From IMG/VR virus record IMGVR_UViG_3300020050_011573: a stretch of DNA of 64,000 bases. One strand, given 5' to 3'. Below, one piece after another: positions 39,185 through 60,040 of the stretch. Source of the DNA: an uncultured virus (IMG/VR IMGVR_UViG_3300020050_011573). Its lineage: Duplodnaviria > Heunggongvirae > Uroviricota > Caudoviricetes. The notes below the pieces were generated by a model, which did no database searches, was not told where the DNA came from, and worked only from the letters and a program-made list of their open reading frames with translations. The translations under genes and the position numbers were made by a program. Within the stretch, counting starts at the first letter, position 1. Every line of letters starts with the position of its first letter.

Positions 39185-42100
39185 CTAATTGTTTCGGTTC
39201 AAGCTTTTGAAAATTTGATCTTCCAAAACTTCATTATCAACCACATCCGGAGGCTGATAATCCCGCTTCGAACTTTCAACTTGAGCGCGGAAACGGTTCA
39301 TTCGACCGTAATACGATGAAATTGCCTTTTCCTGCTCGTATTCGCTCAATTGCTGAAACTGAGCATTCCCTTTGAGTCGTTCAAGTCCAACCTGAATCCA
39401 GGCGCGAACCATGCGATCATCCTGCACATCCTCATCAGGAATTCGGGAAAGCCGTTCGATTCCATCTTTGCTGATTTCCTGCTTCAGCAAAGCTTTTAGC
39501 CGCTCTTTCGGTTGGCCCGCCATGTTTGGATCGTCCGAAAACCTATTGATTGCCCGTTCCTGATTGGAGATATGATCTTTTACCCGGCGTTGATAAACCC
39601 GTTCGTCCTCATCTGGCTTACGGTCTGGGAACCCAGGGTCAAGATCAAACTCAGCCAATTTCTGACGGGTCGGCTTTGAATATTCAGGCCGATCGTAATC
39701 TTGGACACCCAAACCCAAAAACTCAAAAGGAACGATCTGACCGGTTTTTATCAACCCCTTCAAATGGTCGGCCTCATCGTCCAGCAACGTGCCACCCTTA
39801 TAGCCTTTGATGTACGCTTCCACTGTGTTCGACCACATCAGAGGAAGCGCCAGCGAAAACACAGGGTCTTGCACCAGTTCAGCCGCAGACAAAGCATATT
39901 CACCCTCTTTGGCCTTACCCCAGAATTCTCCCGGCTTATGCGTTTCGCCAGTGACCTTTTTCCAGTTATTAAGCCAGTCCACAAAGAAACCAGGCACAGG
40001 CGCCAGCTTGGTTCGAGCAAAGCGCAATGCCTCTTTCGTTGTTTCCGTGCTGAGCTTATTCAGCTTCTTTTCATCCTCTTCGGCCCCACGAGATTTGATC
40101 CATTTGCCAATCTGAATGGCCAGCCGTGCAACTTGCTGAACGCCAGCCAGAACGTCATAGCGAGTTGTGCCAAAGCGCAATTTGAGGAAGTCGGCATCAT
40201 CGTCATCAAATGAGATTGTCGCTCCAGCCGCCTTTGCCAGCGCACCGGTAGCCATCAGCGCAGCCGCTACCGTAAACATTTCTGACATCTGCCGCACAAA
40301 GACGGCTCGCCGCGCTGGAGTCTTTAAGTTTTTGGCATACGTCATCGGATTGATTATCTGAAAACGACTGTAAACATAACGAGGCGACCAACCGAAAACA
40401 TTCAAAAAGGGAATCGCTTTGTCCTTCATGAATGTGCCGTATTTTCCGTTGCCAAAATGCGCTCGGCCAGACGTTTTATTGATCCACTCCGCTGCCGCCT
40501 GCATACTTTCAAAGCGTTCACGAGGGTCTTTGAAGTTTTTCAATGCGCTTCTGCGATAAATATCAAAAATCTCAATTCTCATTGAATCAAGGAGTGTTGC
40601 AAAAGCACGTTCCGCCATCCGAATGCCAGGAATCTTCCCGGCGAGACGAGTCCCAAAGTTCTCTTCGTCAATGTTTAATGGATCATCACCACTAAACTCC
40701 AGTCCAGTAGCTTTCGCATCCCGATAAGCTGGATGCCGTTTCAGCCATTTTACGAATTTTTCAAACTCGGATTTTTTCAGGGACTTCAGTTGCCGTACAA
40801 ATGATTTGCCGCCCTTCACCGGATGTGGGACAGACATATAAAACCCTTGTCGCAGCGTTGCAGAAAGGTCAAATGTTGCCCGCAATGCCTTTGGAACGTT
40901 GATAATGTCACTGGCATTATCCCAGTAAAATTTCCATCCTCTTTTGGGTTTACCATCTTTCCCAAAGAGGCTTTCCTGTTCAGGATCACGCGCAAACTCT
41001 CCCGGCTCGTTCGGTTCCGGTCCTTCTCTGCCATCAAATAAACGCTGAGGACCGCGTGGAGGCTTCCCGCCACCCGCTATGTCAGCTTCGGGCGAGGGCG
41101 CGGCCTCACCGGGATCTCTGACGTTTTCACGGTTGAGTCCCCCAGGGAGGACTTGTTGCGGCCCGCTGATTTTCTCGCTCCCTTCAAACGGCGCGTCAAT
41201 ATCCGCCCGCTGAACTTGTTCTTTGCTGTCTTCTTGTCCTTTTTCATCAGGCCGGCGTACTCTTTTGCCGCTTTCGCCAGGGGCGCGAGGTCCGTTGGTT
41301 CCGGCTTCTTTGGCTTCACGTTCTTGTCGAATTCTTTCTGCAAGGCGTTCTTTAGCATTTAACTTTGCCTCCTTTGCTGGTTGTAGTAATCGGTCAAATT
41401 TGTTGAGTGCATCAATCCCGTGCTTTTCAGCAACCTTTTCAAAATAACTGGCCAGCCATTCCGCAGCCTGTTGATGGTCGGCTTCCGTCCTGATACCCAG
41501 GTCATCATACTTGCCCGCTGCAATCTTTGTCGCCGCTTCCGCTGCAATGGTTTCTGGATCATCCCGATAGCCCTTTTGCACAAGAGCCTTACGGTATTTT
41601 CCGTACCCTTTTGAGGACTGCGCCCATGATGCTCCCACAAGGGCGACGGATTGTCCGTCAACTTCAATCTGTGACCAGTGAAAACCTTCTTCACGAATGT
41701 CGGCCTTGAAGCCTTCAACGGCATCTCGCCGATCACTGGGAATCTCCGCCTGATGACGTTCTTCAAATGGTGTGACGTCCACAACGCTAAAACTTTTCTG
41801 AGTCTTATTCTTCAGAAGTTCACGAAGCGCACCGGACAAGGCTTTCAAGCCTACTTGATATTCGGGCGTTGCCCCGGGAATCTCTTTCTCCAAATAACTC
41901 GCCAGCGCATTGACTTCAGCCCGACTCAAATTCAATCCCGTCAATTGACTGTAATCAGATTGATAAAGTTCGGTGAGAGCAGCACCAAAGATCACCCGCG
42001 CATGGTCGTTGATGAACATTCGAGCGCCACGGCTTCCACGATCCTTGATGATCGTCTGTTGATAAAGCAGGGTATCCATCAAGTTTGCCAGATCACGCAC

Positions 42101-45100
42101 TTTCGGTTGACGCAATGATGCGGCTGGATAGGTTGCATACTGATCCCGTACTTCATCCGACAAGCTGATAGCATTGTAAATCTGCTTGCCATCGGTCACA
42201 TACGCCGCTTTTTCTTCCGTTGTCAGGCTCGACGGATGATCATGCGCAAACAGCGTAACACTCCCTTTTTCGGCCTCACTCAAAATAAAAGCGTCAAATT
42301 GTGCTTTATCGGAGAATTGATCTTTCAATGCTTCTCGCACTCTTGCTGTGGACGTTATCACTGAATGACGCGAAGAAGGAGGATTGGCAATCTCAACCAT
42401 TGTGCGCGCCAACATAGTTGATTTGTTGTCCCCCAGGGAAGCCGCTGGCCCTTTCTTTGCTAACCGTCCCGGTTCACTGCTCTGCTGACCAATTACACGA
42501 GCATCAGCAATCCGTTTCCGGCCAGGAGTTGGCCCAGTAAAAAATTGCGTGTACGAATGGTCAGGAAGTCGCTTCTCAACAAACAACTTTTGCCGAGTTT
42601 CTTCTTCCAGCTTGGCAACCATCACATTAGCTTCGGCACGGCTGAGATTATCCGCAAGGACGACATCAACCCCGTCTTTTGTCCGACCATAAACCGTTGT
42701 TCTGCCCAGTGCCGCCGCAGGTCCCATCGAACGCTGTTTTTCAAGAATTGCCTTTGCTTGATCTTTCTGTTTACCAGAAACCTGAAGCGTAACGCCCTTC
42801 TCTTTCAAATGATCAAAGACCGCCGGCAAGTCTGACCGATCAAAAGTAGCTTTCATCAAGCCAGAACCTTTGACAAACTGGCCCGTCAGTTTGATCAAGT
42901 CCTTATCGAGGAAATACTTGCCGCCCAGTGCTTTCGAGGATGGAACAGTGATATTTACTCCAAAGCCGCGAGGATCAAGCTGTAAAGTCAATTCCTGCTT
43001 TGCGTCCTGCACTCTCCCCCTGTGGACTTCATCAAGGAAAGTTGTGACTTGAGCCGCGGTCAACAAATCCACTGGCATTTCCGCCATCACTTGAGCTGCG
43101 TCAAAGTTGGTTGGAAGCAAAACGCCTTGTTTGACGTTACCATCAGCATCTGTGTAATTGAGGATTTGCCCCTTTGGAAGCTTTGCGAAACCTGAGACGA
43201 TGTTTCCCGTGACCATGTAACGGGTTTGCTTCTTGGTCCCTTGTGAAGCGTCAAATTCTGGCAGCATCGGGCGATATTCGAACATTCCCGTTTCTGGATT
43301 GAGTCTCGACACGTCGGGCGATTGGCCAGCCTTTAACGCGCCTTCTTTGCTGATCAAATCATTGAACCCGATCCGCAATTCCCGGCCATCCAGCACAGCG
43401 AGACGAATCACCCAACTGCTCAACGAGTATGGGTTTTTGGGCTTCCCACGCTTCTGCATATCCAGCACAACGCCTGAGACTGCGCCGGAGTCCGTGTTGA
43501 CCGTGATCATTGCGCCAGGCTGAGCCGCACGAGCAACCGCTCCCCAATGATTTGCCGTGGTGATAGCTTTCTGAATTTGCCCACTGACCGCAGCTTGTGT
43601 TTTTGCATCAGCTTGCGCGACATCGGTAGGAGTTAAAGACTTCTTGTAAACATCGTAAGCTTCCCGATTCTCATTGATGAACCGTGACACCTTAGCCCCA
43701 GCCGCCTGACGCACATCGGCCTCGCTCGCACTCTCTGACAGTCCAAGATTCTCCCGAACCATCGTTTTGACTTCAGCTGAGGTGTAAGCCTTCACCGTGC
43801 GACGTATCTTGACCTTCTCAATGTACGCTGGCTCGCTGAACGGGCTTCCCGGTATGCCTTCCGTCAAAATCTCTTTGCTGAGTGTTTCGGCTTTGAAATC
43901 TTCCGTTTTTGCTTCGAGCGGGTTTTCGCCCATCGCCTCTTTCTGAGCAAGAAAATCGGCATACTCGTTTTCGATTCGATCATACAAATCAGCCTGCTCA
44001 GCCAATGTCAGCAACGGAATCCGGCCCGACACTTTACGAGCAGCACCCTCCTTACTCAGTTCGTCACCATCCCAAACAAGAGGATCACCAAGCTTTTCAC
44101 TCAATTCAGCATCCTGACTCAGAATTCGAGCGATCACGACATCGCCCAATTCGTTCATAAAGTCACTGACACCTTCTGTCTGAACCGCTGATTTTCGGCT
44201 TGCTGTCGTGTTTGCTGACAGGCTGGCCATCTTCTTGAGCAAGACAGCCGCTGGCCTTTTCGACGCCGGCACATCCGCAATCATTTGAATATACCGCGGC
44301 AAAACTTCCTGTCCGGTTCGATTGATTCGCCCCAGCATCTGCATGTGGGTGTCAATATTCTTCTCAGCCTGCCAGATGATCATTAATCGCGGGCGAATAT
44401 CTTTTCCTTCATCTTTGGAAGCATGCAGAGAGATTCCCGTTGATCCTGCCTGATTGAGAATCATTGCGTCCAATCGGCCATTGTTGAAATCACCGATCAC
44501 CCGGCGACGGCCAGCAACCTTTGTATCCTGCGCTGATCTTGCCCGCAGAATTGGGACTGGCCCGCTCAAATCAACCTTTGTTGTTCGGCCCGTAATTTCA
44601 TCAACCTTGTAACCTGCCTTTTCGATCAATCGCCGAACCCGATCAATCGGTGAAATCGGAATTTCTGCAAACTCAGCCTCATTTACAAAATCTTCAACTG
44701 CCTCATAAGCCTCAACGCCCCTGAATCCAAGTTCGTCATCGGTCAATAGCCGACGAATCCGCTTTCCATTTCGATCTTTGATCACGACATCACGCGACCG
44801 GCGAACGTAACGCATCAACACGTCTTTGAAAGTCAGATCAACGGCATCACCAGGGGAAAGGCCAGCATCCTGTAGGAAGCTCTCCATCGTGTTTGAAACA
44901 GTCAGAACAGGTTTTTCACCCCGCTCAATCGCCTCAATCGCCTTCGCCGCCGCTTGATCCGCAGCCAGACCGAGTAGCATCTGATCTACAACGTTGTGCA
45001 TCAGGCTTGTGAAGTTGCTCGAATCAACCCCAGCCTGACCAATCGAGCCATCCTCACTGACCAAAGACGCAGTTTCTTTTGCCTCTTTCTTTAATTCCGC

Positions 45101-48100
45101 AACGGCTCTAGCTTTTGCCTTGTCGAACGCCACAATCAGACGCATTGCCGTACTGATGTTTTCGGCTTGACTCTTATCCACTTCCACGATTTCAGGATCA
45201 TATTTGATGCCGTCAAAAGTGCGTTCCCGGCGCATATACTGACCAGCTTCAGCCAATTTCGAAGCAACCACCTGTTGTAAGGCCACGCCCCCACGCTGGA
45301 ACAACTCCACAAGAGCATTGCCTGTCGTCCCAAGCTGGCCCAGGTCGGTTTTGCTGTACAGGTCCATAATGTCGGAACGCTTGGCATACGTTGCGCTCGA
45401 ATAGAAGACCGATCCAGCAGCTTTGACCAGTTCACGAAAGAACTTTGCGCGGCTTGGCTTCGGCTTGCTCCCACGTCCGCCGACAGCTTCACCACCGGCT
45501 GTGTGGGATTCATCCATAATCAGGACTCCGCCGCGAATCGCCGAACTTACCGCTCTGTGCCGTTCTTTGTTAAACAGTCCCTCAGAAGGATTCATCTGAT
45601 CATAAGTTGTGAAAACAGCGTCATAGCCCTTCAACTTGCCGGACATTCCAACCTGCTCAAGCACACCAATATGATCCGTGGGCGCTCGAAATACCTGCGC
45701 CTCTTTGGGCATTCCAGGGACTTTTTGGCCTTTCGCTTTCGCGTCCGCAGCTTCGTGCATCCACTCCGTTGCCGCAGCGTTAAGCGGAATCGTTTCCCCT
45801 GAATTGGTGATAAGCGGTCGAAACTCACTCAGTCCGATGTTTTTCAAGTCCCTGATCATGTCCGCGTACAAAGCGGGCTTTTGCGTCACAAAAACCGGCG
45901 TTTTACCGTTTTTGATGGCATATCGAATTACGGCCGCATTGATTCTTCCCTTGCCGATGCCTGTGTTGTGGTGAATCAGACCTTCTGCAACATAGTTCTC
46001 ATGTCCAGGCACCCACAAATCGTAAAAGTCGTTTCGGCCAATAAATTCAATTGATTCAATGCGCCGCCATCCAGTATAATCACCCAATGAAGATGACGCC
46101 TGAACGCTATCAAAAACTTGTTGCTGCAAATCAATCCCGGTCTGTTTCTGTGGACTTGGAAGAGTTGAAACAGATAATTGATGAAGCCAAACTTTCAATT
46201 CAGGAAACTGCTGAGCACTTTGGCGTGTCTGTTCCAACAATAACTCGCCGTATGCGAAAGCTTGGACTGAAATCGAAGAAAGGTCACGGCTCCCCAATGG
46301 AGAAAAACTATTTCTGGAATGGTGGTCGAATGACTGATGCTGATGGTTACATTCTTCTGAAACAGCCGGATCATCCATTTGCAACAAAGGCAGGTTATGT
46401 TCGGGAACATCGGCTTGTGATGGAAGAAAAGCTTGGCCGATACCTTCTTCCGACTGAAGTTGTCCATCATATTGATGCCCAGCACGACAATAACCATCCA
46501 GACAATCTTGAGGTTTTTTCGTCAAACGCTGAGCATCTTCGACATGAGTTAACGGGGAAAACTCCAAATTACACGCCGGACGGCCTTCGGCGGATGCGAG
46601 AAAATGCCCTGCGTGTAAACCAGCGCCGATACTCGACCATCCATCAGGAGTCAAAAACCGATGATGAGCCGTCACCGTGATTTTCCGGCCATCATCAAGA
46701 ACAACTTTGAATAAATCAGCCTCACCCTTCTTAAAAGGCGCAGACGCAAACACAGGCAATAAACCCGTCTTGGTCAACGCCAAAACCACAATCGGTAAAT
46801 TCCGTTCAGCCAAAATCTCAATCGGCGTATGCGTATTGGTCAGAGGATCATAAATTTTCGTTCCTGCCGCCACGCACTGATCCCCTATGACGAAGCCCTT
46901 TCCACGCTCAATGTTATCAACCGCCAGGGCAATCGCATCAACCTGTTCCGCTGAGAAATATTTGCTGACTTCATCAGGTTTGTAACCCAGCTTTTCAGCA
47001 ACATATTCATCCGGCGAGCCATGACGTTCCTCAAAGTTGGCCAACGCAGTTTTGACGGCGCCAGCCATATTGCGCGGCGTCATCACATTGAAAGACTTGG
47101 ACTTTGAAAGCGGCTCATAAGGAGAATGGGTATCACTTTCTTTTGGTTTGACAGGTTTTTGCTCAACTTTTGCCGATTCTTTCAATTCAAGATCGTAATC
47201 ATCTATCAAATTCCGATCTTTCATCTTCCGCCAGAACGGTTCTGATTCTGGCAAAACATCTCTTGCACTTACTGTTTTATAACGACTATTTAGCCATTCA
47301 ATCGCCTTTGTACCTAACCCACCTTTAGGGTTAAATACTCTGAAATCCTCAACTGTAAAAGTGCTACCATTTCTCTCTCCAATGATAGATATTCCCGGCC
47401 ACTCATAAACAGTTCTACTTTGACTGTTATAAATCGCTTCCCGCTGTTTTGGTTCGCCAATTCCTTTTGCCCGATCTTCGACAAAGCGAAGAATGTACGG
47501 CTTGCTTCGATCAATCGCGGCCAAGGCAGCATCGCCATATTCTTGTTTGAGATATTGAAGCAATGCCCGGATTGCCCCACGATCATCTAAGCCTTGAAAT
47601 TCACCAACAATTGATTCAAACAGAGGCTTGGCTTTTGCGTAAGTCGCTTCATCGAATTTCGGAGATGCAAGGGAAGCCGCTGGCCCAGGCTTTACCGGCT
47701 TATCGCCAAACAAGTCCATGAAGGCATCAGCTTTTTGTTTCAAACCTTGTTTTGCTGACTGCGTTTCTGTTTTAGGTTTTGTTGATGCAGGCGACTTAAC
47801 GCGAGGCTCTTTTACACTTGGCTTACTTTCTTTCCCTTGTCCCAAATCACGGGCAATGTTCTCCCGCTCTTCAGCGAAAATAGATTCCAGGTCATTAGTT
47901 TTTGGTTGTAATTCTTGAGCAATATTCTCGCGTTCTTCCGCGAAAATATCCTCTAACTCAGATGTTCGTCCATCCCCTGCGTCAGTTCGTCCACCCACTG
48001 TATCAGGCTGATCTTGTTGTAAATCTGAGCTAAATAGGTCTGGTTCAGCTTTTGTTTTGGCTGGCCTTCCTTCTTTCCGGGAACTCTTCCGGCCCGTTGG

Positions 48101-51100
48101 TGTATCAGCGTCCTCAATTGCGGATCCTCGAACCACTCCGCTACCTGAAACGTCGCCGGTATCCCCGCGCTCTGAAGTCGGCTGATTGCGTCGTCCATCG
48201 CCTGGCGTTTGTTTTGTTCCCGTTTGAGCAATTCCATCACCCGACTTTTCATCAGATTCAAATAATCGCCCTGATCCACTGGATTGCCCTTCACTACTGA
48301 CAGTGCCGGATTGCCCCCGTTCGGTGGAATCCAATATCTGACCTTGTTCGAGCTTTGTACCAAGTTCATCGTAAGACCTCACAACGGGCGGAACTTGCGC
48401 GGCTGGATACTTTCTTGCCGACTTACCCCGACCGTCAATAACAATGACATCCACAGGCCAAGCCGCGCCTTGTTTCGCGTACATCTGGCCATCAATTGTG
48501 AAATGATCAACTACATTGTAGGTGTCATAAAGATTTGCATAAAACTTTCGTTTCGCCGCCTGATTATATCCATCTGAGCGAGCTTCCTCAGTTTTCGCCA
48601 TCCGATTGACACCGCCAACAATCAAGACAGCCCGACCATCCGGCAACATTTCTTCTAATGCTTGAAATGCAATTGCGTGGTCTATTTCAGATGTAAGACC
48701 AAACGAAGTTTCAAATTTAATTGACTCAATTAAGCCTTGCAAAAACCCTGGTTTTTTCTTTGTTTCCTTGACCGAACCAAACGGAGGGTTAGCGATTACA
48801 ACATCAACAGCCTTCGACAATCTGACTTTTGTGGCATCAGCAACATTAGCATCAAATCCTTGCGCTCGAAGGTTCTCAACCCGTTTCGGATTCAGATCGT
48901 TCGCTATGACATTTTTAGGATTGGCTGCGATCACCAATGCCCCATTGCCCGCTGTTGGCTCGTACACACTCGTTTTCTTGGTGATTCCGGCAAGCTGAGA
49001 CGCAACATAAGCAATCGGCAATGGCGTCGAATACGCCTGATCCTGCACACTCTGCGATGTGCGCGTTCCCAACGTTGGCATCCGATGATGCAGATCCAGC
49101 AACTTTGCGTAAGTTTCCTGTGGAGAAAGCCCTTCAGCCACAATCTTACGAGCGACGATCACCCCGGCAAGCTCTGCGTCCTCTTCCAAGGCTTTCATTT
49201 CTTCAGTGCCAGATTTGACTCCGAATGTTCGGCCCAACTGACCGTAAAGAATTTCCCCATCCAAAAGAAGATCAACAATCTTGTTTACGCGGGGAGATGC
49301 AGTCACTTTCGGTGTACTTCCTGCATCTCCCTCCTGACGACGAGCATCCCCGAGCAAACCGACATCCCCCGATACCGATTCACTGTTGTTCGCCGCAGTC
49401 TCTTTGTATGCTACCGGCTTTGTGTTGTCCTCAGTTTTGAGCCAGTTCTTGAACTCAAAATCTGACATACTGGTAACAGCGCCACGACGAGTAGGCCCGC
49501 TATTATCGCTGAAGTGAGCATCATAAAGAGCTTCAGCCTCTTCCTTCGTCACGACACCAACAACTACTTTATGTTCATCAAACTTACCAGTTTTTGGGTC
49601 AATCTGATCAAACACAAATACCCGCGCCGCATAAGGATTATCCCCCACATACACATCAACCTGTTCACCGTCCGCGCCTTCTGTCCGGCGAATGTAGCCG
49701 TAATGGGCGGACATCTTCACCGACCATTCTTTACCGTTCTGATCTTTGCCAGAGCGCGTTGAACCCTTTGGATTTTCGATTGTGACATCCAGCCCGTGGG
49801 TTTTGATGTGTCCCTTTTTATAATTTCCGGCTTCAATTTGAGCTTCCGTTGGCTCAGGAAGATCATTTGTCGGTGAAGTCGCCGCTTCGTTGGCTTGCTG
49901 ATCAATAGATACCAAGCGTTGTTCCTTGATTACACTATCAACGACAGGTTGAAAGGATGGATCATAGAAAGTCAGCTTTTCTACTGCACTAACACCATGC
50001 AACCGCGCTACCTCTGAAAGATAATCCTTCACAAAAGCGGTAAGACGGGGATCATTCTTTTTATAACCAAGCAGTTCTCCATCTCCAGACAAAATAAAAG
50101 CCAGTGCTTCACGTTCATAGGTATCAAGGTCCGCCCCCTTGTAAGCCTTAGAATACCGAAGAAGTGCAGCAGCAATTTTTGAGAATTCTGGATGACGTTT
50201 AAGCCAGTCTTTACCGACCAACAACCCCTTAGCAATACTAGACTGCCATCCATGTACCCCGATTTCATGCCATCTCAATCGCGCAACACGTTCATCGCTG
50301 AAAGAATTATCCGTTGACAGAACTTGTACGGACTTTTGCCCCGCAGCCTCTGCCTTGGTAATTGCTGTCTGTAAATCTTGCGCAAGACGAAGCAGGCTAT
50401 TAGCAGCATTTGGAGCGCGTTCTTGCTGTGACAATGCCAAATTATTCAAAACTTCGACAACTTGCTTTGCTGCGTTTAATGGTAAACTTGCCCCACCAAA
50501 TTCTCGAATTACAGAATTTGCAACACCTTCTCTAACAGCAATCGCTACCCATAAAGTCCGAAGACCATCATTGTTTGTCTCTACATAAGCAATTTGCCCA
50601 TGTCCAGTTTCCACATTGACAGCTTTTGATCTAGCTTTTGTAAAAGTGTCTTCCCGTGACTGTGATGCGTTTAACGGTGCAGATTCTACTTCCCATCTAC
50701 CATTTTGCGTTTCTTTTGCAGGCTCAGGAAGATCATTCTTCGGCGAGGTTGCCGCTTCGTTGGCTTGTGCTGCTATCTCAGCTTCCCTTTCCTTCCGCTC
50801 CCGATCCTGCTGCACCATTCGCTCGCCAATCTCTTTTTTGGTGAGTTTTGGTGCTGCCGGCTTCACTGACGGATTCAACGCTTTCAATCGCTTCGCTTTG
50901 ACTCGTTTCGCTCGTTCCTTGCGCGTTTCGATCAACTTGGTTCTAACGGCATTCATTTCTGGCGTATTGGCCTCTAACCCGCCAAATTCACCAGAAGCAG
51001 CTGCCTGTGCTTGAACCTCCTGCAAAGCCTCTAAATAAGAATCAAAATCTTCATCAGATACAGACGACAACTCGGCACCAAGAAGTTGACGCTGTTGGTT

Positions 51101-54100
51101 TGTAAAACCTTTACTCGCTGGCTGAGGGGCTTTCGCATCGTTCACGTCGTTGCGAGGGCTTGAGGGCTGAGCTTTTTTCGGTGTCCAGTCATACACCGAA
51201 ATTATTTGATCTCTACGAAATGGTAACGCAATGACTTTCCCATCTTCATCACGACGCATAATGCCATCATATCCAGCCTCTTCAATCTCCCGCATCCGGT
51301 CAGGATCGTTAACAAGTTCCACTTGCTCCAAACGATCTTTCACTATGTAAGGGTTACGCAAATCCAACCACGCTGAATAAACTCGCGCCGGCCCTTCCGT
51401 TCCACCTAAATGCGCCCCTTCCGCGTACTGCGAACCAAACTCTGCATCGCTGGTAAACCAACTTGCCTCTTTAGGAGAATCAAACGCCGTTGAACTGGAC
51501 GTTCCGTGATACATCGGCGCCGGATTACCCGCATTGTCTGTCACCGCTGTTCCACGAATCTTTTCAGGAAAACGACGTATTGACAGCGGAGCTTTAGATA
51601 AATCCGACTCTTCCTTTCCTTTTGCCTTTGATATTCCCGGCACTCCATATTTCTTTTGCCAGTTTGCAATGTCTGAAATGTGAGCGTCAACGTGATGCTG
51701 GCCCAGGTTGTTGGCGCGAGCGTAATCACGCAAGACTTTGATTCCGGCTTTCCCTTCGTCCGAGTTGAGATTCACATCATAAAGACGCTTCACAAGGTCT
51801 TTATTCGCCCCTTCGATAATCTTGTAGGGCGACATTGAGACGCCAGGTTTGGCAGGTTTCGTTACTGGCCTGTCAGCTTCTGCCAACCCAGGCGAAGTAG
51901 TAAGCCGACCACCAGTAAGACCATCATCAACATTTTGAGTCTCCTTTTCAGCTAAACCGCGTCTCTGTTGAGCTTCGGCAAGCGTTGTTTCGATCCATTC
52001 CGCCGACATGCCAGCCTGGTCAGCCTGCTCAACAAAATCACGCGCCAGTTTTTTCGTGTAGATTGTCCGCGGATTGTCCAGCGCACGATAGACACGGGTA
52101 AATTCACTGGTTTGGTCGGCTAAAAGAGAATCTAGCCTATCTGCTTCGGCTTGTTGTTCTGACGTCATCTGCTCACGCTGATAATCACCAAAACTTTCCG
52201 TTTCCCTGTCTCCCTGTCTTCTTGTCTCTTGTTCAACCTCACGGATGAATTCTTGCGGCGTTTCCGCCCTGGTTAAGCCTTCGCTGGCCATTCGTTCGCG
52301 CATCTGGTCCGGCGACTCCCCGCCTTTGCGCGAAATCAACCCAGTTGTCCCGGACTCTTTTGGCCCCAGGCGATCCAACTCGCCCTTTTCAACTGCTCCT
52401 TCCGGCGCTGCAATCCCGCCCGCACGACGAATCTCAGTCAACAAATTGCCCTGAACATCATCCCCAGCATCACCAATTGTCTCAGTTTGCGGCTGTACAC
52501 CCGTCGCTTTTGCTAAATTCTTGAAGAATGGCGAAACATTCTTCTGAATATCCTGCACAAGAGCCTGTTCTTGCTGCTGTGCTTGGACAAGCTGTTGCTC
52601 AACAATCACACCGGCCTGTGCGTTCTGCTGTTCGATTGGCGAGGGAACTTGTCCCATCATCTGCTTTGCCTGTGCGGATTGCTGGGACGGAAGTAATTCT
52701 TGTTGCTGAGTCTGTAATTGCTGAATCTGTTCCTGAATCTGTGTGATTGCCTCTAACGGCTTGGCCAATTTGTCCAGTGTCGCATCATCGGCCAGGGCAA
52801 CGGTCTGAGGATCAATTCCCGATTTCACCAAGGTTTGAACAATCGGATGGTCAGGTTGAGTCTGAAGTGTTTGCTCAATGGCTTCAACCATCGGCAAATG
52901 TGGGGAATTGCGCTGAGCCAGTTTTTCAAGCGCAACTTGTGATGCTCCGCCACCAGCACCCAAAAACAATGCAGGCACAGCGTTATGCGCCGCATTGCTG
53001 AGCATCTGTCCGGCTGTCAAATTTGGCTTATGACCAGAATAATACTTTGCTCCAACATCAGAAATTCCAGACTGTAAACCTTCTTGTCCGCCTTCTTGAG
53101 CCGACTCTTTCAGAATATGGCCAACAACCTTTTTCCCAGTTTTGGCTCCCGTTCCCATCAAAGAGCCAGCCCCCAGGGATTCAACGCCACCTGAAATCGT
53201 TTGTGTCGCTGTCAAACGCCGAAGCTGATCCGGCGTAGCCCCAGCATCACGCGCCTGATGGTATTCTTCCGGCACTTCCATTGCAGCACCGACCGCACCA
53301 GCAACCAACCGAGGCGAGACACCCAATGCGCGACCAGCCCCACCAGCCGCTATGAATGGAACCATTGATCCGCCAGCTTCCGGCATTGTAGCTGTCCAAA
53401 AGTCAGGGTTTAATGGGTTTATTGTCGGCTGGCGAGTCTCATCAACGGGATATAAGCCTTTTGCCGCACGTTCGCCAAGCCGTGTAATTCCTTCAAGTCT
53501 GTCTCCAAGCGAGGCTTGGCGGTTTTGATGATCAATTTGAGCAGCAATCTTCGCTTTTTCTTCTGGTGGCAAAGCGCGTAATTTAGGATCACTTTCAACG
53601 ACATCATTTCCCGTAACTGTAAACGATTCATCAACCAATCGGCTAAGTCCTTCAGGGATTGAAAAAATTCCCTTGGTTGCGGAACCCATAAAGCGATTTA
53701 CCGCTTCTTCGCCTCTCCCAACCGGCGCATTGATGAATTCCTCTTCCGGTTTCAATCCTCCCGCTGCTGTGGTCAAAACTCGACGACTGAACCGTGTAAA
53801 TGGATTTTCAGACTCAACCTGCCGGCGCATTCGGCGCAATTCCGCTGCGCGTTCCATCTCTTTTGGATCAAACTTTGTTTGACCAGTATCTACCCCTTCA
53901 AGCCGGCGTTGAGTTTGTTTGGGATTCTCTTTTGCGTAAGCCCATTTTCGAGAAGATGCAGAATCAGCATCTTTCCCAAATCCAATTTCAATAAAATCAC
54001 TCAAACCAGGTACTTTTAAGGCTTTTTCAGCTAACTGGTTGGCTTCAGCCAATTCGCGTTCAGCATCAGCCAGCGAATGACGACGCGCATTTTCATCTGT

Positions 54101-54652
54101 GTAGGTTCCTGTAGACCGAAATAGTTCTGTTGCGCGAGCTTTCTTTCGATTGATTTCATTCAGAATCGCTTGAGCATCTTTTTCTGTAACCGTTGATCGA
54201 GCAGCAACCGAACCAGGCTGTGTACCAGTCTTTTTTTGCTTTTGCGGTTCACTCAACCACTTGTTGTAATCCTTGACATCCTTGAAATCGCGGTCTGGTT
54301 CTCTTGTTTCCGTCACTTTACGGATTTTTAGCCAGGTGGATAACTCTTTTGCACTTTCAAAGCCTTGCTTCGGCTTCCAATTCTTGACATCAGATTGCGA
54401 CTCAAATGCCAAATCTCCTGGCAATTTTCCTTTTTTCTGCGGCTGTGGCTTTGACTCCGGAATATTCAATTCTTCAATCGGCGCTTCGATTGCCCATGAA
54501 GTCTTTCGACCAAATATCTTTTCCGCAGGCGTCTGGCTGGAAACATCATCCACCGCAATCTGAGACGGTAGGGAGACTTCTTCAACCGAAATCGGCTGGA
54601 TTGGCCGAACTGGTTGCTGTTGCTGGAAATCGTCAAAGTAGTTGCGCGGCAT
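39185..54652 (-). CDS. Giant polyvalent (DarB-like) virion protein, 5155 aa, intein-containing
   Basis: ART-like (MYHGT...WFT...GYDGI, ~51200-51530); HExxH-like (WHEIGVH, ~50260); pyrophosphatase-like (GNYKKGH..ENPKG..YGY..GADGEQVD..DEHK, ~49440-49860); N6 MTase (YSTP, EPTAGNG, NPPF, ~48400-49060); GNAT-like (~47200-47420); strawberry-notch SF2 helicase (GDQ/TGIGKGR, DESH, SATYA, QMLGRINRTGQ). Confidence 0.88.
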   Translation of the reverse strand: MPRNYFDDFQQQQPVRPIQPISVEEVSLPSQIAVDDVSSQTPAEKIFGRKTSWAIEAPIEELNIPESKPQPQKKGKLPGDLAFESQSDVKNWKPKQGFESAKELSTWLKIRKVTETREPDRDFKDVKDYNKWLSEPQKQKKTGTQPGSVAARSTVTEKDAQAILNEINRKKARATELFRSTGTYTDENARRHSLADAERELAEANQLAEKALKVPGLSDFIEIGFGKDADSASSRKWAYAKENPKQTQRRLEGVDTGQTKFDPKEMERAAELRRMRRQVESENPFTRFSRRVLTTAAGGLKPEEEFINAPVGRGEEAVNRFMGSATKGIFSIPEGLSRLVDESFTVTGNDVVESDPKLRALPPEEKAKIAAQIDHQNRQASLGDRLEGITRLGERAAKGLYPVDETRQPTINPLNPDFWTATMPEAGGSMVPFIAAGGAGRALGVSPRLVAGAVGAAMEVPEEYHQARDAGATPDQLRRLTATQTISGGVESLGAGSLMGTGAKTGKKVVGHILKESAQEGGQEGLQSGISDVGAKYYSGHKPNLTAGQMLSNAAHNAVPALFLGAGGGASQVALEKLAQRNSPHLPMVEAIEQTLQTQPDHPIVQTLVKSGIDPQTVALADDATLDKLAKPLEAITQIQEQIQQLQTQQQELLPSQQSAQAKQMMGQVPSPIEQQNAQAGVIVEQQLVQAQQQEQALVQDIQKNVSPFFKNLAKATGVQPQTETIGDAGDDVQGNLLTEIRRAGGIAAPEGAVEKGELDRLGPKESGTTGLISRKGGESPDQMRERMASEGLTRAETPQEFIREVEQETRRQGDRETESFGDYQREQMTSEQQAEADRLDSLLADQTSEFTRVYRALDNPRTIYTKKLARDFVEQADQAGMSAEWIETTLAEAQQRRGLAEKETQNVDDGLTGGRLTTSPGLAEADRPVTKPAKPGVSMSPYKIIEGANKDLVKRLYDVNLNSDEGKAGIKVLRDYARANNLGQHHVDAHISDIANWQKKYGVPGISKAKGKEESDLSKAPLSIRRFPEKIRGTAVTDNAGNPAPMYHGTSSSTAFDSPKEASWFTSDAEFGSQYAEGAHLGGTEGPARVYSAWLDLRNPYIVKDRLEQVELVNDPDRMREIEEAGYDGIMRRDEDGKVIALPFRRDQIISVYDWTPKKAQPSSPRNDVNDAKAPQPASKGFTNQQRQLLGAELSSVSDEDFDSYLEALQEVQAQAAASGEFGGLEANTPEMNAVRTKLIETRKERAKRVKAKRLKALNPSVKPAAPKLTKKEIGERMVQQDRERKEREAEIAAQANEAATSPKNDLPEPAKETQNGRWEVESAPLNASQSREDTFTKARSKAVNVETGHGQIAYVETNNDGLRTLWVAIAVREGVANSVIREFGGASLPLNAAKQVVEVLNNLALSQQERAPNAANSLLRLAQDLQTAITKAEAAGQKSVQVLSTDNSFSDERVARLRWHEIGVHGWQSSIAKGLLVGKDWLKRHPEFSKIAAALLRYSKAYKGADLDTYEREALAFILSGDGELLGYKKNDPRLTAFVKDYLSEVARLHGVSAVEKLTFYDPSFQPVVDSVIKEQRLVSIDQQANEAATSPTNDLPEPTEAQIEAGNYKKGHIKTHGLDVTIENPKGSTRSGKDQNGKEWSVKMSAHYGYIRRTEGADGEQVDVYVGDNPYAARVFVFDQIDPKTGKFDEHKVVVGVVTKEEAEALYDAHFSDNSGPTRRGAVTSMSDFEFKNWLKTEDNTKPVAYKETAANNSESVSGDVGLLGDARRQEGDAGSTPKVTASPRVNKIVDLLLDGEILYGQLGRTFGVKSGTEEMKALEEDAELAGVIVARKIVAEGLSPQETYAKLLDLHHRMPTLGTRTSQSVQDQAYSTPLPIAYVASQLAGITKKTSVYEPTAGNGALVIAANPKNVIANDLNPKRVENLRAQGFDANVADATKVRLSKAVDVVIANPPFGSVKETKKKPGFLQGLIESIKFETSFGLTSEIDHAIAFQALEEMLPDGRAVLIVGGVNRMAKTEEARSDGYNQAAKRKFYANLYDTYNVVDHFTIDGQMYAKQGAAWPVDVIVIDGRGKSARKYPAAQVPPVVRSYDELGTKLEQGQILDSTERGQSGTVSSEGQSSGSGRLFESDEKSGDGIAQTGTKQTPGDGRRNQPTSERGDTGDVSGSGVVRGSAIEDADTPTGRKSSRKEGRPAKTKAEPDLFSSDLQQDQPDTVGGRTDAGDGRTSELEDIFAEERENIAQELQPKTNDLESIFAEERENIARDLGQGKESKPSVKEPRVKSPASTKPKTETQSAKQGLKQKADAFMDLFGDKPVKPGPAASLASPKFDEATYAKAKPLFESIVGEFQGLDDRGAIRALLQYLKQEYGDAALAAIDRSKPYILRFVEDRAKGIGEPKQREAIYNSQSRTVYEWPGISIIGERNGSTFTVEDFRVFNPKGGLGTKAIEWLNSRYKTVSARDVLPESEPFWRKMKDRNLIDDYDLELKESAKVEQKPVKPKESDTHSPYEPLSKSKSFNVMTPRNMAGAVKTALANFEERHGSPDEYVAEKLGYKPDEVSKYFSAEQVDAIALAVDNIERGKGFVIGDQCVAAGTKIYDPLTNTHTPIEILAERNLPIVVLALTKTGLLPVFASAPFKKGEADLFKVVLDDGRKITVTAHHRFLTPDGWSSIGAGLHAGHFLASAEGRPACNLEFSPLTHVEDAQRLTKKPQDCLDGYCRAGHQYDGQLQSEEGIGQAFLPSQADVPEHNLPLLQMDDPAVSEECNHQHQSFDHHSRNSFSPLGSRDLSSISVQAFAYGELLLEQTRQSAQQFPELKVWLHQLSVSTLPSPQKQTGIDLQQQVFDSVQASSSLGDYTGWRRIESIEFIGRNDFYDLWVPGHENYVAEGLIHHNTGIGKGRINAAVIRYAIKNGKTPVFVTQKPALYADMIRDLKNIGLSEFRPLITNSGETIPLNAAATEWMHEAADAKAKGQKVPGMPKEAQVFRAPTDHIGVLEQVGMSGKLKGYDAVFTTYDQMNPSEGLFNKERHRAVSSAIRGGVLIMDESHTAGGEAVGGRGSKPKPSRAKFFRELVKAAGSVFYSSATYAKRSDIMDLYSKTDLGQLGTTGNALVELFQRGGVALQQVVASKLAEAGQYMRRERTFDGIKYDPEIVEVDKSQAENISTAMRLIVAFDKAKARAVAELKKEAKETASLVSEDGSIGQAGVDSSNFTSLMHNVVDQMLLGLAADQAAAKAIEAIERGEKPVLTVSNTMESFLQDAGLSPGDAVDLTFKDVLMRYVRRSRDVVIKDRNGKRIRRLLTDDELGFRGVEAYEAVEDFVNEAEFAEIPISPIDRVRRLIEKAGYKVDEITGRTTKVDLSGPVPILRARSAQDTKVAGRRRVIGDFNNGRLDAMILNQAGSTGISLHASKDEGKDIRPRLMIIWQAEKNIDTHMQMLGRINRTGQEVLPRYIQMIADVPASKRPAAVLLKKMASLSANTTASRKSAVQTEGVSDFMNELGDVVIARILSQDAELSEKLGDPLVWDGDELSKEGAARKVSGRIPLLTLAEQADLYDRIENEYADFLAQKEAMGENPLEAKTEDFKAETLSKEILTEGIPGSPFSEPAYIEKVKIRRTVKAYTSAEVKTMVRENLGLSESASEADVRQAAGAKVSRFINENREAYDVYKKSLTPTDVAQADAKTQAAVSGQIQKAITTANHWGAVARAAQPGAMITVNTDSGAVSGVVLDMQKRGKPKNPYSLSSWVIRLAVLDGRELRIGFNDLISKEGALKAGQSPDVSRLNPETGMFEYRPMLPEFDASQGTKKQTRYMVTGNIVSGFAKLPKGQILNYTDADGNVKQGVLLPTNFDAAQVMAEMPVDLLTAAQVTTFLDEVHRGRVQDAKQELTLQLDPRGFGVNITVPSSKALGGKYFLDKDLIKLTGQFVKGSGLMKATFDRSDLPAVFDHLKEKGVTLQVSGKQKDQAKAILEKQRSMGPAAALGRTTVYGRTKDGVDVVLADNLSRAEANVMVAKLEEETRQKLFVEKRLPDHSYTQFFTGPTPGRKRIADARVIGQQSSEPGRLAKKGPAASLGDNKSTMLARTMVEIANPPSSRHSVITSTARVREALKDQFSDKAQFDAFILSEAEKGSVTLFAHDHPSSLTTEEKAAYVTDGKQIYNAISLSDEVRDQYATYPAASLRQPKVRDLANLMDTLLYQQTIIKDRGSRGARMFINDHARVIFGAALTELYQSDYSQLTGLNLSRAEVNALASYLEKEIPGATPEYQVGLKALSGALRELLKNKTQKSFSVVDVTPFEERHQAEIPSDRRDAVEGFKADIREEGFHWSQIEVDGQSVALVGASWAQSSKGYGKYRKALVQKGYRDDPETIAAEAATKIAAGKYDDLGIRTEADHQQAAEWLASYFEKVAEKHGIDALNKFDRLLQPAKEAKLNAKERLAERIRQEREAKEAGTNGPRAPGESGKRVRRPDEKGQEDSKEQVQRADIDAPFEGSEKISGPQQVLPGGLNRENVRDPGEAAPSPEADIAGGGKPPRGPQRLFDGREGPEPNEPGEFARDPEQESLFGKDGKPKRGWKFYWDNASDIINVPKALRATFDLSATLRQGFYMSVPHPVKGGKSFVRQLKSLKKSEFEKFVKWLKRHPAYRDAKATGLEFSGDDPLNIDEENFGTRLAGKIPGIRMAERAFATLLDSMRIEIFDIYRRSALKNFKDPRERFESMQAAAEWINKTSGRAHFGNGKYGTFMKDKAIPFLNVFGWSPRYVYSRFQIINPMTYAKNLKTPARRAVFVRQMSEMFTVAAALMATGALAKAAGATISFDDDDADFLKLRFGTTRYDVLAGVQQVARLAIQIGKWIKSRGAEEDEKKLNKLSTETTKEALRFARTKLAPVPGFFVDWLNNWKKVTGETHKPGEFWGKAKEGEYALSAAELVQDPVFSLALPLMWSNTVEAYIKGYKGGTLLDDEADHLKGLIKTGQIVPFEFLGLGVQDYDRPEYSKPTRQKLAEFDLDPGFPDRKPDEDERVYQRRVKDHISNQERAINRFSDDPNMAGQPKERLKALLKQEISKDGIERLSRIPDEDVQDDRMVRAWIQVGLERLKGNAQFQQLSEYEQEKAISSYYGRMNRFRAQVESSKRDYQPPDVVDNEVLEDQIFKSLNRNN
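41077..41358 (-). CDS. Candidate nested +1-frame gene inside the giant protein
   Basis: AAGGAGG 9 nt before ATG; 93-aa basic ORF; host frame is low-complexity here. Confidence 0.4.
   Translation of the reverse strand: MLKNALQKEFDKNVKPKKPEPTDLAPLAKAAKEYAGLMKKDKKTAKNKFSGRILTRRLKGARKSAGRNKSSLGDSTVKTSEIPVRPRPRPKLT
46051..46080 (+). promoter_or_regulatory. Sigma70-like promoter embedded antisense in the intein
   Basis: TTGATT (46051-46056)-N18-TATAAT (46075-46080); ATG at 46087. Confidence 0.65.
46087..46680 (+). CDS. HTH-HNH homing endonuclease encoded antisense within the intein
   Basis: HTH SIQETAEHFGVSVPTITRRMRKLG; WNGGR..DGYILL..PDHPFA..GYVREHRLVMEEKLGRYLLPTEVVHHID...NNHPDNLEV..NAEH. Confidence 0.88.
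   Translation: MKMTPERYQKLVAANQSRSVSVDLEELKQIIDEAKLSIQETAEHFGVSVPTITRRMRKLGLKSKKGHGSPMEKNYFWNGGRMTDADGYILLKQPDHPFATKAGYVREHRLVMEEKLGRYLLPTEVVHHIDAQHDNNHPDNLEVFSSNAEHLRHELTGKTPNYTPDGLRRMRENALRVNQRRYSTIHQESKTDDEPSP
47953..48369 (-). CDS. Candidate nested +1-frame gene inside the giant protein
   Basis: GAGGT 6 nt before ATG; 138-aa globular-looking ORF over a S/G/D/E/R-rich linker of the host frame. Confidence 0.5.
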   Translation of the reverse strand: MNLVQSSNKVRYWIPPNGGNPALSVVKGNPVDQGDYLNLMKSRVMELLKREQNKRQAMDDAISRLQSAGIPATFQVAEWFEDPQLRTLIHQRAGRVPGKKEGQPKQKLNQTYLAQIYNKISLIQWVDELTQGMDEHLS

Positions 54653-57812: not shown

Positions 57813-57829
57813 CCCAATACCTCCCTCTA

Positions 57830-57898
57830 TTCCAGCGGCGGGACTCGAACCCGCATTCCCGGCTTGCGGCCAGAGTTTCACCGTTACCTCACGCTGGA
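57830..57898 (-). tRNA. Degenerate tRNA-like element (apparent GCA anticodon)
   Basis: Acceptor TCCAGCG/CGCTGGA, perfect T-arm GCGGG-TTCGAGT-CCCGC, D-loop GG; atypical anticodon arm, ~69 nt, no encoded CCA. Confidence 0.6.
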
Positions 57899-57928
57899 AC
57901 CAATGAGCCGACGATCCTCAGCGCCGAC

Positions 57929-58165
57929 TCAAACTTTGCTCTTTAGAGCTTGTTCTTCCCAGTACTTCTCAAGCAGCTTGTTAGACTGTGATTGAATCTC
58001 CCGCGCCCAGTCTTTCACGTTCACATCATCGCTGCACTGGAGAATCTTTCCTGCACAATTTCTAATCGTCGCCAATGGCGAGGCCGATCCTCGCGGCAAC
58101 GTCATTTCGTCCTTTGGTGTGCAACTCTGATTCAAGTCTATCTGCAATTGTTCTTCTGCGTTCAT
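57929..58165 (-). CDS. Hypothetical protein
   Basis: AAGGAG SD before ATG 58165; overlaps the end of ORF 58062. Confidence 0.4.
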   Translation of the reverse strand: MNAEEQLQIDLNQSCTPKDEMTLPRGSASPLATIRNCAGKILQCSDDVNVKDWAREIQSQSNKLLEKYWEEQALKSKV

Positions 58166-58886
58166 TTTCGGGTAACTCCTTCCAAGATTGAAATTCAAAT
58201 TTGCCCACTCGGGCGAAAACGTAAGAGAAAGGCGGTTCTCCATCACGCCAGCGAAGCTTGACTTGGAATCCCTTGTCATTCGCCGGACATTCCCACCAAG
58301 AGCCAGTTTCGGGAGTGGGCAAAAGCGGCTTTACGTCATTTTGCTCACTGGTGGGCAAATCCAATAACTCCCGCTTTTTCCGTGACTTAACTTTTGGTTG
58401 CTCACTGGTGGGCAAATCCGGTTTCTGTGTCGCTTTTAGTCCAGCATCAGCACTTTGCACACCAGCCGAACCAGCCAGGGAACCCACAACTCTTTTGTGA
58501 GCCACCCGCCGAGGGCCAATATGCACACCAGAAAGGCTCTTGCTAATATCTTCATCGGTTACTGGCTCCAAGTCAGCACCATGGACACCAGCGCCAGGAT
58601 CCCCAGGCCCACGGTGATGCAAAATAGCGTCTTTTTGCGCACTTCCTTTTTGAATTCGTGCATTTTTTACCTCTTCCCCGCTTCCCTGCCCCGAGTTTTC
58701 CACAAGTTGAGAATCCTTTGAAACTTCATCAAATCTGCGGCTAAACTCTTCTGCCGGCATCACTTCTTCAATTCGACGCCCGTCAGGGTGAGTAAAAATC
58801 GCTTTTCCGTTCGACCAATACCCACCCCAGCCTTCTTTTGCATGCCAGCCGTCACCACTCCATGACGACTGGCCTACACGTTTCCC
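58062..58886 (-). CDS. -1 frameshift extension of the upstream membrane protein
   Basis: Open -1 frame entered at slippery G GGA AAC (58880-58886); no convincing independent start. Confidence 0.55.
   Translation of the reverse strand, partial: GKRVGQSSWSGDGWHAKEGWGGYWSNGKAIFTHPDGRRIEEVMPAEEFSRRFDEVSKDSQLVENSGQGSGEEVKNARIQKGSAQKDAILHHRGPGDPGAGVHGADLEPVTDEDISKSLSGVHIGPRRVAHKRVVGSLAGSAGVQSADAGLKATQKPDLPTSEQPKVKSRKKRELLDLPTSEQNDVKPLLPTPETGSWWECPANDKGFQVKLRWRDGEPPFSYVFARVGKFEFQSWKELPENERRRTIADRLESELHTKGRNDVAARIGLAIGDD
58844..58886 (-). other. Programmed -1 ribosomal frameshift cassette
   Basis: G GGA AAC heptamer, 6-nt spacer GTGTAG, 11-bp stem GCCAGTCGTCA/TGACGGCTGGC. Confidence 0.7.
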
Positions 58887-59994: not shown

Positions 59995-60040
59995 AAGATA
60001 CACGAACTGCATTGCAGATGCAATGCACTTTTGCTACTAT
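59995..60040. promoter_or_regulatory. Divergent promoters with shared palindromic operator
   Basis: + strand TTGCAG-N17-TACTAT (extended -10); - strand TTGCAT-N17-TATCTT; perfect IR TGCATTGCA-GA-TGCAATGCA (60008-60027) covers both -35 boxes. Confidence 0.7.

Follow-up and report, generated by a model that had tools for sequence, protein, structure and literature searches.

A gene for a putative membrane protein in an uncultured phage genome ends in what looks like a −1 frameshift signal, which raises the question of whether two proteins are made from it and, if so, what the longer one does. Phage −1 shifts are known outside tail-chaperone genes, with capsid, major tail and cro genes among the examples described (PMC5009743, PMC10885494), and it is the gene family and its appended part, rather than the non-tail location, that are new here. 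The family is real and conserved and, by searches of the open full-text literature (subscription journals not covered) that listed no paper about it, apparently undescribed; its layout is unusually dense, and gene callers split the gene and give its −1 part a false start, leaving both parts unannotated.

The slip signal in the window

The DNA analysed (the window, 64,000 nucleotides) makes up the start of a virus record of 68,101 nt, whose completeness a tool put at 93%; the final 4 kb of the record were inspected by eye only. Proteins of the window match terminase, portal, major head, tail-spike, primase and helicase; on the minus strand, 39185–54652 encodes a 5,155-amino-acid protein with methyltransferase- and helicase-like motifs seen by eye. 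Among the 42–43 proteins scanned, none matched a tail tube, tape measure, tail chaperone or integrase, in agreement with the sequence-only reading, which had considered the phage to lack a tail chaperone (42 proteins against PHROGs). A G-T frameshift of the tail-chaperone kind was rejected on the same grounds, the gene encoding a membrane protein and lying in the early region. The elements of the signal are as follows.

59728→58874, minus strand: 0-frame open reading frame of 284 amino acids, ending CCG GGA AAC GTG TAG
58880–58886, minus strand: slippery heptamer G GGA AAC (GGGAAAC), from the sequence
58874–58879, minus strand: 6-nt spacer GTGTAG, from the sequence, including the 0-frame stop TAG
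58844–58873, minus strand: putative stimulatory hairpin of 11–12 bp
58785–58828, minus strand: second hairpin, 15 nt beyond the first, folding in the window and in the related locus L003
58062–58880, minus strand: −1-frame extension of 272 amino acids by open-reading-frame reading, a hydrophilic linker followed by a C-terminal domain

The heptamer, 6-nt spacing and 11-bp hairpin that had been reported at the end of this gene are present as described, as is a −1 frame open for about 270 codons to 58062: it spans 272 codons, so that a shift would yield a fusion of 283 + 272 = 555 amino acids, and only 3 of 3,000 shuffles leave all 185 codons ahead of the C-terminal domain open. The hairpin comprises 11 bp including one G·U, or 12 bp counting a closing U·G; with its flanks it folds at −25.8 kcal/mol (z = −5.80; 0 of 200 shuffles equally stable) and is the strongest hairpin adjacent to any of the 321 X XXY YYZ heptamers in the window. 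No U-tract follows it, a terminator scan did not call it, and no second stem of an H-type pseudoknot was found in the window (p = 0.54), where it is a plain hairpin. Relative to L003, the cassette carries one change over 14 codons, in the hairpin loop. Contigs from three of four sequencing runs (three studies) bridge the slip site, which excludes an assembly error; none of the indels listed falls there, and those listed in the linker sum to 0 or +18.

The same heptamer, G_GGA_AAC, is the proposed slip site of the halovirus HCTV-1 (PMC5009743). AAC is less tolerated than AAA or AAG after a shift in Escherichia coli (PMC4066793), and the window's site is therefore likely a low-rate version. Elsewhere, at about 10364 (minus, the non-coding strand), an A AAA AAC heptamer accompanies a −21.8 kcal/mol hairpin; the −1 frame there closes after 8 codons, so this pairing is probably due to chance.

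The signal across the gene family

The window was compared with 36 related loci: 20 split, 15 in-frame long forms and one (L024) cut before its 3′ end. The split set (n = 21, the 20 loci plus the window) includes duplicates, for example L011/L032, L019/L033 and L027/L036. A slip site lies 0–6 codons before the stop in all 21 split loci and is canonical in 19, the sequences being G GGA AAA (14), G GGA AAC (2), C CCA AAA (3) and G GAA AAA (2), of which the last joined the slip-site rule only after being seen. A stem starts at +5 to +8 in all 20 split loci long enough to fold; z is −2 or lower in 9 of the 20, compared with 11 among 97 control windows. The 45-nt test window was too short for three stems of 10–12 bp with long loops. 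In the 19 complete split loci, open stretches measure 127–346 codons in the −1 frame and 3–62 in the +1 frame. Variation is lowered at the slip signal, and stem sequences differ between clades with both sides changing: in a 13-row stem alignment, 16 cells had both pair sides changed, a count inflated by related rows and reached in 1 of 500 shuffles. Clades other than the window's share the place of a possible 4–5-bp pseudoknot stem (86% of cells paired; single-locus p of 0.01–0.6). An upstream Shine–Dalgarno (SD) stimulator is not a consistent feature (5 of 21 split loci).

Natural variants point the same way. In-frame fusions occur in 15 of the 36 loci, 12 of them joined at the predicted junction; within the C CCA AAA clade, fused alleles continue as the shifted product would, having lost the heptamer, and the stem is weaker in 5 of the 8 folded. 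Among the 120 listed of 159 protein homologues, 96 are short and 24 are long in frame, and the motif [GPKL][KN] occurs in the last ten residues of 90 of the 96 short ones versus 14% of 531 background windows. A quick, unrooted core tree, in which tail swapping is likely, implies 10 changes between short and long states, with at least 6 forced by well-supported branches. Of two loci added by the genome sample of the class described below, L051 is a duplicate of L031, and L052, a counterexample, has neither cassette nor extension domain. The family shows every sequence hallmark of a heptamer-class −1 shift (heptamer, 3′ structure, conserved −1 frame and natural fusions), and the conservation of the signal, together with the natural fusions, argues that −1 frameshifting very probably operates at the slip site in vivo. 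The suggestion that two isoforms are made in this way is accordingly strengthened by the homologues in which its authors had proposed to look for the heptamer and stem.

Several details of the signal were also recorded. The G GAA AAA heptamer, found in two loci that represent one element (L019/L033), directly precedes the stop (about 3092–3101 in L019), where a stem of 10 bp with a long loop follows and the −1 frame spans 190 codons; the matching EK footprint ends four proteins of the core tree. A possible 5-bp second stem lies just 3′ of the heptamer in L005, L006, L021, L026, L036 and L037.

The short membrane protein and its upstream region

The 284-amino-acid protein has hydrophobic segments at residues 23–41, 54–72, 81–99, 110–128 and 223–241, a long helix spanning residues 108 to 188 and a short tail. 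Its first hydrophobic segment sits in a 43-amino-acid N-terminal extension that L003 and most homologues do not have. Core identity among homologues is 57–97%, with no Pfam, PHROG, PDB-sequence or fold match to the 284-amino-acid protein. From charge, hydropathy and spacing, we infer that the long helix would lie outside and the C terminus in the cytoplasm. Around the gene are the following features.

59995–60027, minus strand: candidate promoter (−35-like 60023–60018, 17 nt, −10-like 60000–59995), kept in L003
60008–60027: 20-nt inverted repeat overlapping the candidate promoter, a possible operator, with spacing and repeat kept in L003
59759–59786, minus strand: leader hairpin of 12 bp upstream of the ribosome-binding site, −20 kcal/mol in the window and in L003
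60048–60257, plus strand: divergent small gene with a weak DUF6364 match (E = 7.6 × 10−5, below the cut-off)
57829–57899, minus strand: tRNA-Cys(GCA), just downstream of the frameshift gene and the sole tRNA in the window

The gene had been proposed as the first product of a regulated operon. This is plausible, the promoter-like pair and inverted repeat being kept in L003 and facing a divergent gene that is likely a ribbon–helix–helix (RHH) regulator; a consensus promoter scan did not call the 59995–60027 pair. LexA (SOS)-regulated membrane division inhibitors carry a LexA box upstream; in this family, a LexA box with one mismatch occurs in 14 of 30 upstream regions versus 7.4 ± 2.3 in shuffled sequence, with duplicate loci included among the matches. 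At the other end of the gene, the 3′ part of the tRNA overlaps the called start of the next open reading frame.

The extension and its C-terminal domain

Across the family, the extension consists of a variable hydrophilic linker (about 60 to 270 amino acids) and a domain of about 80 amino acids.

58065–58319, minus strand: C-terminal domain of β-sheet and helices (AF2), predicted to bind DNA (MBD-like, Foldseek)
58356–58358, minus strand: possible internal TTG start in the −1 frame for a 98-amino-acid product, with GGGAG about 9 nt upstream, kept in L003

In the window, the extension has no hydrophobic segment and contains 8 Trp in 272 residues, in two clusters, so that an earlier description of it as a Trp-rich tail was overstated; it is a linker followed by a predicted DNA-binding domain. 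Its first 60 residues (58810–58880, −1 frame) hold four Trp and are conserved in L003, and L030 and L037 have a different module inserted at this place. Comparison of the extension with L003 reveals a synonymous bias in the −1 frame, and the indels seen keep that frame; within the domain, there are 21 synonymous and 21 non-synonymous changes in the −1 frame versus 5 and 39 in the 0 frame. The TTG codon could serve to make the terminal domain alone.

An AF2 model of the domain (pLDDT 59) has strands followed by helices. The top two Foldseek rows are MBD2–DNA, at a non-significant E of 0.28 (probability 0.69, TM 0.44–0.48), aligned over 72 columns with 17–18% identity; this match is a lead that agrees with an earlier guess from sequence patterns. 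The three-stranded-sheet-plus-helix DNA-binding fold is also found in AP2 and integrase arm-binding domains. The last 110 amino acids are basic in all 32 proteins checked (pI 8.8 in the window and 9.2–10.4 in the other 31), with the window's 85-residue domain alone at pI 5.9. The fold match and the basic C termini suggest that the added domain probably binds DNA; the non-significance of the match and the pI of the window's domain alone speak against it.

A domain profile finds 118 clusters, with the domain no more than 30 amino acids from the C terminus in 106 of the 116 examined. Pfam returned nothing for 18 aligned domain members and nothing relevant for 41 homologues scanned. The window's domain is divergent (hhalign E of 0.004–0.7 to other clades): a profile built without near relatives recovered P0122, P0124 and L003 at E values of 3 × 10−5 to 6 × 10−3 and the window at 0.13 (38-sequence set), with no match for the L014/L035-type domain. 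Three proteins (P0175, P0179 and P0237) appear by eye to carry two domains of the C-terminal type, one at each end, with the membrane part absent from the called sequence.

Genes and palindromes within the linker

Two small 0-frame genes and a repeated palindrome lie within the extension.

58559–58663, minus strand: nested gene 1, a 34-amino-acid hydrophobic peptide with its own SD
58436–58555, minus strand: nested gene 2, a 39-amino-acid hydrophobic peptide with its own SD, from the open reading frame
58398–58415: palindrome copy 1, 8-bp arms, 2-nt spacer and one mismatch, within an exact 22-nt direct repeat
58341–58358: palindrome copy 2, with a half-site at 58315–58322
58201–58218: palindrome copy 3, degenerate, three mismatches

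Nested gene 1 has 10 synonymous and 4 non-synonymous changes in the 0 frame (1 and 13 in the −1 frame) and is therefore likely a real gene, whereas the signal for nested gene 2 is ambiguous (7 and 13 in the 0 frame versus 8 and 15 in the −1 frame). Similar nested reading frames, two or three per phage allele, were found by rule in L001 (5829–6005), L003 (5257–5505) and L004 (from 4578) and by eye in L037; the peptides have no family match. That the −1 frame stays open through these 0-frame genes argues that ribosomes must read through it.

The 18-bp near-palindrome occurs in the extension as two exact copies and one degenerate copy, and no further site with three or fewer mismatches exists in the 68,101-nt record. 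Other alleles have repeated palindromes of their own (five in L001, three to four in L004, and others in L014/L015, L035, L021 and L019), which are clear in the window, L001, L004, L014/L015 and L035. The repeats differ by clade, and their peptide footprints can be recognized by eye in distant proteins whose domain belongs to that clade. A strict palindrome test was positive in 5 of 24 loci, with the window scoring 0; a relaxed test, chosen afterwards, was positive in 14 of 24 loci versus 41 of 227 controls, and also in 31 of 88 tiles of this genome. In 6 of 24 loci, the extension holds an 8-mer at least four times, as do 7 of 357 control windows. Duplicates were excluded from this 24-locus set, as were two cut loci (L005 and L028) and two that the pattern did not pick up (L022 and L023). 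No clear repeats were found in the L007/L026 and L008-type loci, which sit among housekeeping genes. On these patterns, we rate at about even odds the possibility that the domain targets the in-gene palindromes, which differ between domain clades.

A possible DNA-to-membrane tether

The reading that we favour, with a probability of roughly 0.45, is that the long form made by frameshifting tethers the element's DNA to the inner membrane. A minority of ribosomes would shift −1 at the conserved heptamer and hairpin, yielding mostly the short inner-membrane protein and some of the long form with its DNA-binding head, and the head would grip palindromes within its own gene, holding phage DNA at the host membrane. 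Short and long forms may co-assemble, in which case the shift rate would set the number of DNA-binding heads per membrane complex, and such a complex may serve the positioning or partition of extrachromosomal copies. A more detailed version, which we hold more tentatively, is a single-gene DNA-to-membrane tether of Acidobacterial phages and islands that combines a scaffold, a dosing frameshift, allele-specific sites in the linker and nested peptide genes, with head and sites co-diversifying so as to give per-element specificity. Scans of the phage proteins against Pfam and PHROGs turned up neither a ParA nor an FtsK partner.

The same anatomy could instead belong to a membrane-anchored transcription regulator, with the outside helix sensing the envelope and the head acting on an operator or roadblock within the gene. 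The frameshift gene is first in an apparent operon, with the tRNA and early genes downstream of its palindromes, and some homologues adjoin LexA, CI, AlpA or HTH_17 genes. We nevertheless consider this unlikely: the promoter region contains no full palindrome, nor does any other part of the 68-kb record outside the gene, linker length varies from about 60 to 270 amino acids and a regulator would seem to have no need for a large headless excess.

Superinfection exclusion or host takeover, which the sequence-only reading had put forward, gained no direct support; the extension has a predicted DNA-binding end, and the gene also occurs in chromosomal loci. The short form and nested peptides would here alter the membrane while the long form captures incoming DNA where it enters, consistent with the early-region position, with nested hydrophobic peptides in the phage-type alleles (window, L001, L003, L004 and L037) and with a family present in 7 of 401 sampled genomes of the class, several copies in some. 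However, no known family was matched in Pfam or PHROGs, the palindromes point towards self DNA and the core is very conserved (57–97% identity), which most exclusion proteins are not known to be, and we regard this explanation as quite unlikely.

In Spd-like spreading, the protein would form a membrane channel that has affinity for DNA and passes the element's DNA from one joined cell to the next, which would account for an inventory resembling SpdB2 and its small Spd partners; this is improbable in view of the missing sequence link (no Pfam match for either part) and of scanned phage proteins and neighbours among which there is no TraB/FtsK-type translocase. Least probable of all is that there is no functional frameshift, the C-terminal domain being a separate gene from TTG 58358 and the hairpin having another role: this SD-preceded TTG, kept in the window and L003, qualifies the earlier statement that the −1 frame has no good start, 7 of 19 split loci have an SD and start somewhere in that frame, and AAC shifts poorly in E. 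coli (PMC4066793), but 12 of 19 loci have none, existing starts share no common place between loci, the hairpin has no U-tract and was not called a terminator, and a separate gene leaves unexplained the heptamers, 176 open upstream codons, frame-keeping indels and in-frame fusions.

Relation to known systems

The tether reading draws on parts with separate precedents. Tandem-slippage −1 shifts (lambda G-T, HCTV-1, IS3-family, A2 and T3/T7 capsid) share with this gene the same kind of heptamer near the stop, a 3′ structure 5–8 nt away and a minor C-terminally extended product, and the replacement of the shift by an in-frame fusion in some relatives parallels phage Ig-like extensions (PMC5009743). 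What sets this gene apart is that its product is a non-structural membrane protein outside any known family, to which a linker and a predicted DNA-binding domain are appended; in addition, small genes overprint the −1 frame, and a consistent upstream SD stimulator is absent. The E. coli copA gene likewise yields two functional lengths of product through a −1 shift in a membrane-protein gene (PMC5009743), but that shift truncates to a small soluble chaperone, whereas the shift here extends the membrane protein.

For the proposed function, Streptomyces Spd proteins offer a parallel: SpdA2 binds a palindrome inside its own open reading frame and aids segregation (PMC4170104), and SpdB2 is a four-helix oligomeric membrane protein that binds double-stranded DNA and works with small Spd proteins (PMC4447253). 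The candidate palindromic targets inside the gene recall SpdA2/sps and the multi-helix membrane protein recalls SpdB2; there, however, the two functions are separate genes beside TraB, whereas here they would reside in one frameshift-joined gene. Phage phi29 has the membrane anchors p16.7 and p1, early proteins for which a role in bringing phage DNA to the membrane has been proposed (PMC4974454). The likeness lies in the early membrane protein and in DNA recruitment, with no homology found and no frameshift used by p16.7. The phi29 protein p16.7 is single-pass and sequence-nonspecific. The domain resembles the MBD fold in its predicted strands followed by helices, and differs in that the match is non-significant.

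In nearly every known case, a phage −1 frameshift adjusts the ratio of virion or assembly proteins, whereas here a DNA-binding head is apparently switched on or off. With its four slip sites, unrelated stems of several kinds, possible pseudoknots and repeated gain and loss of fusions, the family also provides a natural series, which could be used to ask why a shift is kept over a fusion and, for Acidobacteria, what differs between AAA and AAC sites. If the tether reading is correct, the gene would constitute a partition or positioning device without its own ATPase, in which one stretch of DNA is used three ways, as linker, nested genes and binding sites.

Distribution of the family

Named homologues come from Blastocatellia/Acidobacteria (the Acidobacteria survey found covers three such genomes; PMC3711429). 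Five of the seven genomes with the family in the class sample were already in the locus set, and one sampled genome has up to seven partial family matches. Neighbouring genes are mostly those of mobile elements (integrases, CI, AlpA, primases, an O-like initiator and capsid genes), with a ParA and RHH pair in one neighbourhood, and some homologues adjoin LexA or HTH_17 genes among housekeeping genes. In L007, L011, L026, L027 and L032, lexA precedes the gene by about 450–600 nt, in housekeeping surroundings. In L008, a 46-nt inverted-repeat element (4791–4836 and 6140–6185) flanks the fused gene on both sides, and a double HTH_17 gene comes next; the 46-nt element also occurs upstream in L009, L013, L016–L018, L020, L022, L023 and L034, and this module, found at different chromosomal places, is perhaps a small mobile or relic one.
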